Assembly (NCBI RefSeq): GCF_003334335.1
Contig: NZ_QOWQ01000004.1
Strand: one strand, 5' to 3'
DNA from: Escherichia coli
GTDB taxonomy: Bacteria; Pseudomonadota; Gammaproteobacteria; Enterobacterales; Enterobacteriaceae
DNA length: 64,000 nucleotides
Shown here in pieces: positions 27,457-34,599 of this stretch. The position numbers and the translations under genes are program-made. The notes under the pieces are model-generated. The model saw nothing but the letters and a program-made list of their open reading frames with translations, did not search any database and was not told where the DNA came from. Within the stretch, counting starts at the first letter, position 1. Each line of letters opens with the position of its first letter.

Positions 27457-28047
27457 TCACCGTTTCGGCGTCACATCCGTCGTCCCCTGCAAACGGGGGC
27501 GATTTTCCTCCATTTGCCTCAGTGGCTGCGTTTCATGCAACGATGCATGACAGCGCCCGACAAGATCCTGATACTCTTTGGTATTCAACCGTTTCCAGTG
27601 TAACTCGTCGTCACTCACGCTGCGTACAGCGCGGGCTGGCGTACCCATCAACAACTGGCGTTTCTCGCCGCGAAAGCCCGCTTTGATAAAGCTCATAGCG
27701 GCAACAATGCTCTCTTCGCCAATGACCGCGCCATCCATAATCACGCTGTTCATCCCGACCAGTGCATCGCGACCAATCACACAACCATGCAGGATCGCTC
27801 CGTGCCCGATATGACCGTTTTCCCCAACGATGGTGTCAGTGTTGCAGTAGCCATGCATAATGCAGCCATCCTGAATATTGGCTCCCGCTTGCACGATCAA
27901 CCGCCCGTAGTCACCACGCAGTGAGGCGAGTGGGCCGATGTAGACACCGGCTCCCACAATCACATCGCCAATCAAGACGGCACTGGGATGGACAAACGCC
28001 GTCGGGTGAACCACCGGAATTAACCCCTCAAAGGCGTAATAGCTCAC
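27457..28047 (-). CDS. caiE: Carnitine operon protein CaiE (hexapeptide-repeat transferase family)
   Basis: 196 aa from GTG at 28047 ([21 protein letters not shown]...), leaving a 5-nt gap to the caiD stop as in K-12; the alternative ATG at 28068 would give 203 aa. Confidence 0.9.
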
Positions 28048-28052
28048 GGTTG

Positions 28053-28838
28053 TTAACGTCCTTTCCACACCGGATCGCGCTTCTCGGCAAACGCCAGCGG
28101 CCCTTCAATGGCATCTTCCGAATGCAGAACCGACGGATAGTGTTTCAACACGCCGCTGCGAATATAGCGATACGCTTCTTCCACCGGCATTTCGCTGGTG
28201 GTGCGGTAGATCTCTTTCAGCGCCGCAATCGCCAGCGGGGCGCTGTTAACCAGCTGCTGCGCCAGTTCGCGGGCGTTATCCATCAGTTCCGCCTGGTTAA
28301 CCACGCGGTTGACTATCCCCCAACGCAGCGCCTCTTCTGCGCCCATTCGTCTGCCGGTCATCACCATTTCATTGACGATGGCAGGCGGCAGGATCTTCGG
28401 CAGACGCAGCACGCCGCCGCTGTCAGGAACGATGCCCAGTTTGGCTTCCGGCAGGGCGAAGCTGGCATTATCGGCACAAACAATAAAATCTGCCGCCAGC
28501 GCCAGTTCAAAGCCGCCGCCAAAGGCATAGCCGTTCACAGCTGCGATAACCGGTTTGTCGAGATTGAAAATTTCGGTTAATCCCGCAAATCCACCCGGGC
28601 CAAAGTCAGCATCCGGTGCTTCGCCTTCTGCTGCCGCTTTTAAATCCCAGCCCGCGGAAAAGAACTTCTCTCCGGCACCGGTGATAATGGCGACACGTAA
28701 TTGCGGATCGTCACGGAAATTTAGAAATACTTCGCCCATTTCAAAGCTGGTTTTTGCATCAATAGCATTCGCTTTTGGACGATCAAGGGTAATTTCCAGA
28801 ATTGATCCATTGCGGGTCAGATGTAATGATTCACTCAT
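28053..28838 (-). CDS. caiD: Carnitinyl-CoA dehydratase (crotonase family)
   Basis: 261 aa from ATG at 28838 ([29 protein letters not shown]...); track start at 28946 is an overcall. Confidence 0.95.
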
Positions 28839-28946: not shown

Positions 28947-30467
28947 TTATTTCAGATTCTTTCTAATTATTTTCCCCGAGCAATTACGTGGCAGATCTTT
29001 TCTGATCTCCAGATAAGAGGGCACTTTAAATTTCGCCATATTTTGTTCGCAGAAGCGGAAAAATTCCTCTTCGCTCAATGTTTCACCTTCATTCAGCACC
29101 ACAAATGCTTTGATGGCTTCATCGCGAATCGAATCTTTAATACCCACAACCACGATGTCCTGAATTTTCGGGTGCGCGGCGATAATATTTTCCAGCTCCA
29201 CGCAGGAGACATTCTCGCCACCGCGTTTGATCATATTGCAGCGGCGATCGACGAAATAAAAAAAGCCCTCTTCGTCGCGGTATCCGGTATCGCCGGTATG
29301 TAGCCAGCCATCGGCTTCCAGCACTTTCGCAGTGGCTTTCGGGTTGAGAAAATACTCTTTGAAGATGGTTTTCCCTGGTACGCCTTTAATACAGATTTCA
29401 CCGAGCTCACCAGCCGGGAGGGGACGATTGTGATCGTCGCGGATCTCCGCTTCGTAGCAAAAGCCCGCCCGACCAATCGACGGCCAGCGCCGTTTATCGC
29501 CAGGGCGATCGCCGATAATGCCCACAATGGTTTCCGTCATCCCATATGACGTCAGCAAGCGAACGCTGAAGCGTTCACAAAACGCGTCTTTTTCCTGCTC
29601 CGACAGGTTGAGATAAAACATCACTTCCCGCAGGCAGTGTTGCCGATCGTTCGCTGAAGGCGGCTGCACCATCAACGTACGAATCATCATCGGAATACAT
29701 TCGGTAATGGTGGCGCGGTACTTCTGCACCTGTCCCCAGAAGGCGCGGGCGCTGTATTTCTCGACCAGCACAAAGGTGGCCCCGGCAGAAAACGCCGCCA
29801 TCGCCGCAGTACACTGGCAGTCAATATGAAACGCAGGCATTACCGTCAGGTAGACGTCATCGTCACGCAGTGCACACTGCCAGGCGGAGTAATATCCAGC
29901 GAAGCGCAGGTTGTAATGGGTAATCACCACCCCTTTCGGTCGGGAGGTAGTGCCGGAGGTGAAGAGAATTTCCGCCGTATCGTCAGTCGATAGCGGCGGT
30001 GCATAGCACAAGGTGGCAGGTTGTTGATTTTTCAGTTGAGTAAACGAACTCACGCCATCATCAGCGGGAAGTGCCATATCTGTCAGGCAAATGTGCCGCA
30101 ACTGAGAGGCATCTTCCTGCTGAATCTGTTGATACATAGGATAAAATTGCGCACTGGTCACCAGCAGGCACGCCTGGCTATTTTGCAGGATCCACGTGCT
30201 TTCTTCGCGCAACAGGCGGGCGTTAATCGGCACCATAATCGCGCCAATTTTTGCCAACCCGAACCAGCAAAAGATAAATTCCGGGCAGTTGTCGAGATGT
30301 AGAGCAACCTTGTCGCCTTTGCGAATCCCCAGCGTATAAAACAGGTTTGCCGTGCGGTTAATCTCCTGATTTAACTCAAGATAACTATACCGGTTAACGA
30401 CTCCGCCGCTGGATTCACAAATTAGCGCCGTTTTATGACCGTAAACGTCCGCCAGATCGTCCCACAT
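28947..30467 (-). CDS. caiC: Crotonobetaine/carnitine-CoA ligase (N-terminus affected by an in-frame TAA, see findings)
   Basis: 506-aa [25 protein letters not shown]..., AMP-binding enzyme motifs; the K-12-like N-terminus MDIIGGQHLR is encoded in frame upstream but separated by TAA at 30468-30470. Confidence 0.92.
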
Positions 30468-30573
30468 TTAACGTAGATGTTGTCCGCCAATGATATCCAT
30501 TGCACCTCTATCCATTGTTGTTCGTTTGTTATTGAGCGGGCGCTAGTCAGGCAAGCTGACTGACGCCACGCGT

Positions 30574-31809
<1,236 letters not shown>

Positions 31810-31825
31810 TTATGTAGCGCATGAC

Positions 31826-31900
<75 letters not shown>

Positions 31901-31908
31901 GCACGGAC

Positions 31909-33051
31909 TTAGCGGTATTGCTTCAGCACCGCGCGACCCAGCGTCAGGATCTGCATTTCGTCAGATCCCCCGGAGACGCGGTCTACACGCAGATCACGCC
32001 AGAAGCGGCTGATGCGGTGGTTGCCCGCAATCCCGACACCGCCCAGCACCTGCATTGCGCTATCCACCACTTCAAATGCTGCATTGGCGCAGAAGTATTT
32101 GCACATCGCTGCATCGCCAGAGGTGATGGTGCCGTTGTCTGCTTTCCACGCTGCTTCATACAGCATGTTTTTCATGGAGTTTAATTTGATCGCCATGTGG
32201 GCGAATTTTTCCTGAATCAACTGGAAACGACCAATAGCCTCGCCAAACTGCACGCGCTGGTTGGCGTAGCGCGCCGCATCTTCAAAGGCGCACATCGCCG
32301 TACCGTAGTTGGTCAGGGCTACCAGGAAACGTTCATGGTCGAACTCTTCTTTGACGCGGTTAAAGCCGTTACCTTCCCGACCGAACATGTCTTTCTCGTC
32401 CAGTTCCACATCGTCAAAGGTGATTTCACAGCAGCTATCCATACGCAGACCGAGCTTCTCAAGTTTGGTCACTTTGATGCCCGGTTTGCTCATATCAACA
32501 AACCATTCGGTGTAGACAGGTTTGTCCGGAGAAGCCCCGTCGCGCGCCATCACCACGATGTACGGGGTGTAGGCGCTACTGGTAATAAAACACTTACTAC
32601 CATTAAGATAAATCTTACCATTTCTACGGGTATAAGTCGTTTTCAGGCTACCCACGTCGGAGCCCGCGCCCGGTTCGGTAATCGCTGAGTTCCACATCTG
32701 CTTACCGGTGCCGCGGAAAGCCATAATCTTGTCGATCTGCTCTTGTGTGCCTTCGCGCAGGAAGGTATTGAACCCGCCCGGCAACTGGTACAGTACATAG
32801 GTTGGTGCCCCCAGACGTCCCAGCTCCATCCACACGGCGGCGAGAGTAACAAACCCCGCGTCCAGACCACCGTGCTCTTCAGGGATCAGCAGACTGTCGA
32901 TACCCATATCCGCCAGTGCTTTGACAAAACGTTCCGGGTAGACGCTGTCACGGTCGCACTCGGCAAAATAGGCCTCCCAGTTTTCGCTGGCCATCAGTTC
33001 GCGGATACCGGCGACAAACAGTTCCTGCTCATCATTTAAATTAAAATCCAT
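31909..33051 (-). CDS. caiA: Crotonobetainyl-CoA reductase (acyl-CoA dehydrogenase family)
   Basis: 380 aa, [35 protein letters not shown]... Confidence 0.97.
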
Positions 33052-33081
33052 CTTTCAACCTCTTGATATTTTGGGGGTTAA

Positions 33082-34599
<1,518 letters not shown>

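Follow-up and report, generated by a model that had tools for sequence, protein, structure and literature searches.

The start of caiC and its codon-11 stop

Does a gene still function when its frame is closed after 10 codons and a second start codon follows the stop directly? The question is raised by caiC in the 64,000-nt stretch of Escherichia coli DNA analysed here (hereafter, the window). The gene encodes a betaine:CoA ligase (crotonobetaine/carnitine-CoA ligase), an ATP-consuming enzyme that primes the anaerobic carnitine pathway and does so catalytically, by priming a CoA cycle that is upheld by CaiB; in E. coli, the cai operon converts dietary L-carnitine to gamma-butyrobetaine.

On the minus strand, the 5′ end of caiC (30500-30465) reads ATG GAT ATC ATT GGC GGA CAA CAT CTA CGT TAA ATG; with the TGG GAC GAT that follows, the translation is MDIIGGQHLR*MWDD. 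An ochre stop (TAA, 30468..30470) occupies codon 11, where the ancestral codon is CAA (Gln11); comparison with CAA alleles places the derived base at 30470, where it is T on the minus strand and thus A on the plus strand. This is a real, inherited CAA-to-TAA transition: in an alignment of the start region, K-12, ETEC4071 and MS6198 all carry CAA, whereas the window and M217 carry TAA. An earlier, sequence-only reading of this DNA had proposed that codon 11 had undergone a nonsense change from the K-12 state, giving HLRQMWDD for the K-12 protein, and both points agree with the K-12 sequence.

The stop converts the first 11 codons of caiC into a 10-codon mini-ORF (MDIIGGQHLR plus TAA; 30468..30500, minus strand), although orthologs use this frame as conserved coding sequence. 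The ATG for Met12 (30465..30467, minus strand) abuts the stop, giving TAAATG; no other codon offers a plausible restart, and this is the start that RefSeq assigns in carriers. As the earlier reading also described, a 506-aa ORF is left, which lacks residues 1-11, runs from ATG12 to the caiC stop at 28947 (28947..30467, minus strand) and is identical to RefSeq WP_021571091.1. The distance from TAA to ATG12 is therefore 0 nt, inside the range of about −8 to +10 nt over which neighbouring genes can be translationally coupled (PMC10666635).

The substitution leaves the local mRNA fold as it was, with minimum free energies of −26.9 and −28.5 kcal/mol for the two alleles and unpaired probabilities at the start site of 0.45 and 0.49; neither difference is meaningful, and an effect of the T on mRNA structure or start accessibility was rejected.

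The window's caiC sits in caiTABCDE, divergent from fixABCX and beside caiF (annotation transferred from TOE17 at 99.94% identity). The upstream gene, caiB (405 aa; 30574..31791), and the last gene of the operon, caiE (196 aa; 27457..28047), are intact, full-length ORFs, as is the downstream gene caiD (261 aa; 28053..28838), which would face polarity if caiC were poorly translated; all are on the minus strand. Neither the rest of caiC nor any other cai gene is damaged in the window, TOE17 or LR-03. About 400-530 nt past ATG12 there is a C-rich, G-poor stretch, with a C/G ratio of up to 1.9, which is at most suggestive of Rho loading.

Evidence that translation begins at ATG1

The native Shine-Dalgarno (SD) sequence of caiC, AGAGGTG (30503..30509, minus strand), serves ATG1: its duplex with the 3′ end of 16S rRNA has a free energy of −7.1 kcal/mol, and its own 3′ end sits 2 nt ahead of the start codon. 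The same duplex search found no comparable site for ATG12, the best candidate reaching only −3.2 kcal/mol and ending 13 nt away; thus, the SD that is characteristic of a coupled cistron is missing here. An older 522-aa start, the ATG at 30515, likewise has no SD by this measure.

The N-terminus is also conserved as protein. A pattern MD-x-[IV]-[GA]-x-x-x-L-[RG]-Q is common to 22-32 CaiC orthologs of 65-92% identity, drawn from Citrobacter, Salmonella, Plesiomonas, Cedecea, Aeromonas, Shewanella, Serratia, Providencia, Edwardsiella and other genera, and nearly all 517-519 aa long. In the ortholog alignments, Met1, Asp2 and Leu9 are invariant, and Arg10 and Gln11 are at least 90% conserved; Gln11 itself is invariant in 22 of 22 orthologs and at least 90% conserved in the alignment of 32. 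The curated CaiC equivalog model, NF005947.1, tells the same story: the intact ancestral allele scores 986.5 bits over profile positions 1-518, and the 506-aa product 964 bits over positions 12-518 of 518, so that residues 1-11 are worth 22 bits. Taken together, the SD placement, the cross-genus N-terminus and the family profile indicate that ATG1 is the real start and that codons 1-11 are genuine, constrained coding sequence.

With a cutoff of 651 bits, the truncated product passes the family test as a whole protein, the conserved N-terminus being the part that is not matched; PGAP therefore calls the 506-aa caiC of carriers intact. In other respects the window's ORF is an orthologous member of this family within the ANL adenylate-forming superfamily, with the caiTABCDE context and an intact family motif, but its product lacks the conserved first 11 residues and its ATG lacks a ribosome-binding site of its own.

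Structural information on the missing segment is modest. An AlphaFold2 model of CaiC, of moderate quality (mean pLDDT 69; residues 1-10, pLDDT 65), places residues 2-6 in a short helix and residues 9-11 in the first turn of a helix spanning 9-20. Sequence matches of CaiC to ANL ligases are unambiguous, and among the PDB homolog matches no solved ANL structure aligns to residues 1-11. In the model, these residues look peripheral, albeit conserved, and they may be dispensable for catalysis.

Distribution and ancestry of the TAA allele

Of 5426 complete genomes, 5393 matched a 341-nt query around the site with at least 95% identity, and the annotation there was caiB/caiC throughout. A 57-mer centred on the T was found exactly in 331 of the 5300 matching complete E. 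coli genomes (∼6%), a count that misses carriers with a neighbouring SNP and comes from a collection skewed to clinical isolates, in which clinical ST167 is over-sampled. Nearly all of the remaining genomes differ from the TAA 57-mer by one or two mismatches, and the CAA codon is shared by ∼94% of the complete E. coli genomes; TAA is thus the minority state, not one shared by K-12 and most strains, and the suggestion in the sequence-only reading that it is a strain marker holds in the form of a lineage allele.

A whole-gene search found the window's exact caiC in five genomes (DLI.5a, LR-03, TOE17, EcE.CRE.COL and AST46), together with a group one base away that includes NCTC86, and many genomes two bases away. 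The allele WP_024257861.1 (517 aa), carried by NCTC86, D9, USMARC-51408 and AR_0085, has C for T in codon 11 as its one difference from the window's caiC and is, on this comparison, the immediate ancestor of the TAA allele; NCTC86 belongs to ST10, phylogroup A (PMC5793043). In a four-way comparison over ∼50 kb, 30470 is the only site that joins the window, TOE17 and M217 against USMARC-51408. The closest 25-kb matches to the window in the complete-genome collection are ∼7-8 bases different, as estimated from bit scores. On these data, TAA is a fixed lineage allele that marks out a clade derived from ST10 within phylogroup A, with ST167 among its members, and the single base at 30470 cleanly separates this clade from the ST10-type ancestor allele.

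Later lesions in descendants of the TAA allele

Two mismatches from the window's caiC lies the allele WP_000263451.1, which combines TAA with P188S and R310C and is present in M217, EC22, EC0900 and ‘167’. Among the matches listed, the carriers at two mismatches include ECONIH6, AR_0011/14/149/150/151/162, WCHEC005237, CRE1493, CREC-532/629, Y5 and SCEC020007, all of them published ST167 strains (PMC6392093). The window has the ancestral state at both sites: codon 188 is CCG (Pro; 29937..29939, minus strand) and codon 310 is CGC (Arg; 29571..29573, minus strand), and these are TCG (Ser) and TGC (Cys), respectively, in ST167-type descendants. Pro188 lies in the AMP-binding motif, the signature of which is intact in the window, and is kept in both top PDB homologs. 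Moreover, Pro188 and Arg310 are each invariant in 32 orthologs, against a background in which 36% of columns are invariant among 22.

The P188S and R310C 57-mers are exact in 330 and 324 genomes, respectively, and we attribute the gaps between these counts and the 331 for TAA to some genomes having additional SNPs close to the sites. An allele with CAA, P188S and R310C is absent from the genome collection, where the best matches are one mismatch off; the existence of such a revertant or recombinant was accordingly rejected. Because no such allele exists in the collection, the simplest order of events would be TAA first, with P188S and R310C following later.

Over the 40.7 kb in which M217 is collinear with the clade of the window, it has seven SNPs of its own, and two of them are the caiC substitutions P188S and R310C, where 0.2 would be expected in the gene (Poisson P ∼0.017, a post hoc value from small counts). 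A further TAA carrier, CFSAN061772, has an extra D141N at a variable position. Of the five genomes whose caiC is identical to that of the window, two (AST46 and DLI.5a) share a deletion of 3,032 bp. The segment, which is present in the window (30991..34022, minus strand), comprises the 3′ portion of caiT, the complete caiA gene and the 5′ portion of caiB. Within the sample, this secondary decay (P188S, R310C and the 3-kb deletion) occurs only on the TAA background.

Probable consequences for CaiC synthesis

The fixed Gln11 ochre mutation of this lineage, which annotation masks, is in our view probably a strong hypomorph or a null. The strong native SD serves ATG1, and the frame opened there ends after 10 codons; the sole route to CaiC would then be local termination-reinitiation at TAAATG, without the help of an SD, which would yield little protein, and that protein would lack the conserved residues 1-11. 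CaiC would be expected to fall several-fold to more than ten-fold, because SD removal cuts E. coli reinitiation by 60-100%: of four native gene pairs, one lost it altogether and three lost 60-90% of it (PMC6728339). The process is local in E. coli and declines steeply with distance, a spacing of +2 nt costing 5-70% (PMC10666635), so that the 0-nt spacing of TAAATG is favourable. Poor reinitiation would also leave 1.5 kb of caiC mRNA free of ribosomes, which could lower caiD and caiE via instability or Rho-dependent polarity; reduced expression of both genes is possible, since long untranslated stretches make E. coli transcripts unstable (PMC10666635). The suggestion in the sequence-only reading that caiC is expressed differently relative to caiD and caiE is plausible. 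The amount of enzyme matters: CaiC dosage limits flux through the pathway, since a K-12 derivative that overproduced CaiC yielded 50-fold more L-carnitine (PMC2131755).

The stop falls in a frame that is coding in the orthologs and in the immediate ancestor, as in pseudogenes that arise by early nonsense mutation, and TAA would represent the first step of pseudogenisation, with which the later damage in descendants fits, although the window-type allele itself is otherwise clean. Set against this explanation is the 0-nt geometry of stop and ATG, which is the most favourable for reinitiation. Some CaiC protein is likely to be made from the TAA allele, because the stop and ATG12 are directly adjacent, and little of it might be enough, because the enzyme works catalytically, in priming the cycle that CaiB upholds. 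The secondary lesions, for their part, might be explained just as well if this lineage can do without the entire pathway, irrespective of what TAA does.

The strongest competing explanation, possible but less well supported than a hypomorph or null, is that reinitiation at the abutting ATG is efficient, that the 506-aa CaiC works and that the allele is a near-neutral lineage marker; we consider this rather unlikely. With 0 nt between TAA and ATG, much coupling could be retained, as it is at short spacings in E. coli, where the loss at +2 nt can be as low as 5% within its range of 5-70% (PMC10666635). Apart from the lost residues, the 506-aa ORF is undamaged, its product scores far above the CaiC family cutoff, the window's other operon genes are intact too, and the lack of any solved homolog aligning to residues 1-11 is compatible with their being expendable. 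However, ATG12 lacks an SD, the loss of which is so costly to reinitiation, and residues 1-11 are conserved across genera; nor would descendants with substitutions at invariant residues and an operon deletion be expected under purifying selection. The same three observations weigh against the sequence-only reading where it judged the Met12-start product to be ‘probably functional’.

It is considerably less probable that caiC has been retuned adaptively rather than killed, i.e. that TAA created de novo a 10-codon leader ORF, making CaiC strictly dependent on SD-less reinitiation, and that the resulting down-tuning, coupling or outright silencing of the ligase was selected in the ST10/ST167 lineage. 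Fixation of the allele in a large, successful clade would fit such selection, as would the excess of caiC changes on the M217 branch (two of seven SNPs, P ∼0.017), which goes beyond simple relaxation. Clonal hitch-hiking, however, accounts for fixation without selection, and clinical ST167 is over-sampled in the collection. Furthermore, the later changes at invariant catalytic-motif residues look like decay, not tuning, and caiC has been truncated independently in other E. coli. The short ORF and its stop are not conserved across related taxa: codon 11 is read through in every ortholog, in the one-base ancestor and in ∼94% of E. coli genomes, and no ortholog has a conserved leader-ORF arrangement. 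Were selected down-tuning nonetheless correct, the globally spreading ST10/ST167 lineage would have altered the gut conversion of carnitine to gamma-butyrobetaine, and the excess of later caiC changes would reflect selection, not drift.

That the annotated start is simply wrong, ATG12 being the true start in all E. coli and TAA a silent change in the 5′ leader, is very improbable, even though RefSeq starts the gene at ATG12 in carriers and raises no pseudogene flag. The strong SD is placed for ATG1, with none for ATG12; the 11 upstream codons are kept as protein in orthologs, with conservative substitutions; the curated equivalog model covers positions 1-11; and Met12 is not universal, being Thr or Ala in Shewanella and Edwardsiella. 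A wrong upstream start in K-12 was thus rejected on SD placement, cross-genus conservation and the family profile. Least probable of all, and rejected, is a sequencing or assembly error. The base accuracy of the window is imperfect, as is shown by two 1-bp differences in homopolymers at other positions, which are private or near-private; the codon-11 change, however, substitutes one base for another and is no homopolymer indel, and 331 complete genomes, each assembled independently, share it.

Comparison with known systems

Early nonsense mutations in E. coli lacI and in phage T4 rIIB gave translational restarts, as is well known from classical genetics. As there, caiC has an early stop followed by a nearby in-frame start, and a restart would give an N-terminally truncated product in reduced yield. 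In contrast to those cases, the caiC mutation is a natural allele fixed in a wild lineage, its restart codon touches the stop, and both the restart and the activity of its product are putative. The event is thus of a familiar kind (early nonsense with a possible restart) and will not surprise the specialist.

Native coupled gene pairs (Huber et al. 2019, PMC6728339; PMC10666635) resemble caiC in their stop-to-start distances of −8 to +10 nt and in the strong SD of the upstream gene; in the experiments on such pairs, the last 15 nt of an upstream gene were enough for coupling. They differ in usually having an SD inside the upstream gene, which ATG12 lacks, and in that their upstream gene is an evolved cistron, whereas that of caiC is an accidental 10-codon remnant. 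A third likeness is to the lineage pseudogenes of dispensable catabolic operons in E. coli, which also arise from a single point mutation, are inherited clonally and acquire later lesions; caiC departs from the usual case in that its lesion lies so near the start, with an ATG at hand, that gene callers report an intact gene, and in that its loss of function is putative.

Implications

A literature search on caiC nonsense alleles, and on ST167 in connection with carnitine, returned nothing relevant. More than 300 complete genomes, including those of the NDM-associated ST167 high-risk clone, have a RefSeq-‘intact’ caiC that begins after a premature stop, and most TAA carriers also have substitutions at invariant catalytic-motif residues. 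For both of these reasons, metabolic reconstructions and pan-genome presence/absence calls would wrongly credit the carriers with a working carnitine pathway. Strain-level loss of this kind could matter for microbiome studies of the conversion of carnitine to gamma-butyrobetaine. Moreover, TAAATG without an SD would provide a convenient natural test case for SD-independent reinitiation.

Beyond this clade, public protein data contain other caiC truncations from E. coli, which we judge to be independent of the TAA allele, although some may be assembly artefacts. Together with the lesions described above, they fit a gene that can be spared and has decayed more than once, TAA being the first hit in the clade studied here. 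One set of truncations begins at residue 164 (N-terminal truncation; 176 members), and there are several internal deletions. Others have frameshifted tails after residue 416, in clusters of 901 and 70 members, and a run of seven T residues in caiC (29264-29258) lies at the site of these frameshifts.

Haplotype context of the caiC allele

Between 3888 and ~14800, M217, an ST167-type strain in which the TAA allele of caiC (an ochre stop at codon 11) is accompanied by P188S and R310C, is strongly divergent from the window: >200 SNPs are found across a stretch that spans nhaA/nhaR, the fimbrial operon, espX1 and ribF, and the fimbrial usher is truncated in M217. From ~14.8 kb on, the two sequences are almost identical. 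This position looks like a recombination boundary between M217 and the window, and the caiC allele therefore lies inside a block of at least 40 kb that is common to both.

Within the TAA clade, a further subdivision is seen in fixB. At codon 137 (36262), the window, M217 and USMARC-51408 (which has the CAA allele of caiC) have CGC (Arg), and TOE17, whose caiC is identical to that of the window, has Cys. The fixB protein of TOE17, WP_032304519.1, is common to AST46 and DLI.5a, and this marks a TOE17/AST46/DLI.5a sub-lineage. The latter two, isolated at geographically distinct sites and carrying the same TAA allele as the window, have in common a 3,032-bp deletion corresponding to 30991-34022 of the window; as a result, the remaining 5' part of caiT is fused to the remaining 3' part of caiB, and the junction shows an overlap of ~7 bp.

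The window carries eight SNPs that none of TOE17, USMARC-51408 and M217 has (11395, 13989, 21141, 28683, 28874, 33164, 42911 and 52327). Three of these fall within the cai operon, namely, a synonymous change at I52 of caiD (28683), a caiC-caiD intergenic change (28874) and A478G in caiT (33164); that at 21141 gives G41R in dapB.

Homopolymer runs and other local variants

caiC contains a T7 run at 29258-29264 (codons ~413-415). Among E. coli CaiC clusters in public protein data, there are some with frameshifted tails that begin directly after residue 416 (901 members at 424 aa and 70 at 454 aa), which points to this run as a site of either recurrent slippage or recurrent assembly error.

Two other T-runs of the window differ by 1 bp from comparators. 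In the run at ~7233-7239, the window lacks one T (~7234) that is present in all three comparators (TOE17, USMARC-51408 and M217); as a result, the minus-strand gene for a 319-aa 'hypothetical protein' (WP_000871680.1; 6572-7530), which adjoins the fimbrial usher, is split, and an ORF of 207 aa (6572-7195) remains. The missing T reflects either a frameshift private to the window or an error in sequencing the homopolymer. In espX1 (473 aa; 11574-12994, minus strand), a 1-bp deletion in the T-run at ~12464, relative to TOE17 and M217, yields two ORFs of 217 and 186 aa. The deletion is common to the window and USMARC-51408, where the gene is annotated as a frameshifted pseudogene; since this grouping conflicts with that defined by TAA, recurrent homopolymer slippage is the probable origin.

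TOE17 lacks a 15-bp segment of yabP, CCCGGACGGTGCTAA (51742-51756 in the window), which the window shares with USMARC-51408 and M217; all three comparators have yabP annotated as a pseudogene with a frameshift. Finally, three caiC matches in the complete E. coli genome collection lie on plasmid-labelled records; the probable explanation is either mis-assignment of chromosomal contigs or the presence of large inserts of chromosomal DNA.
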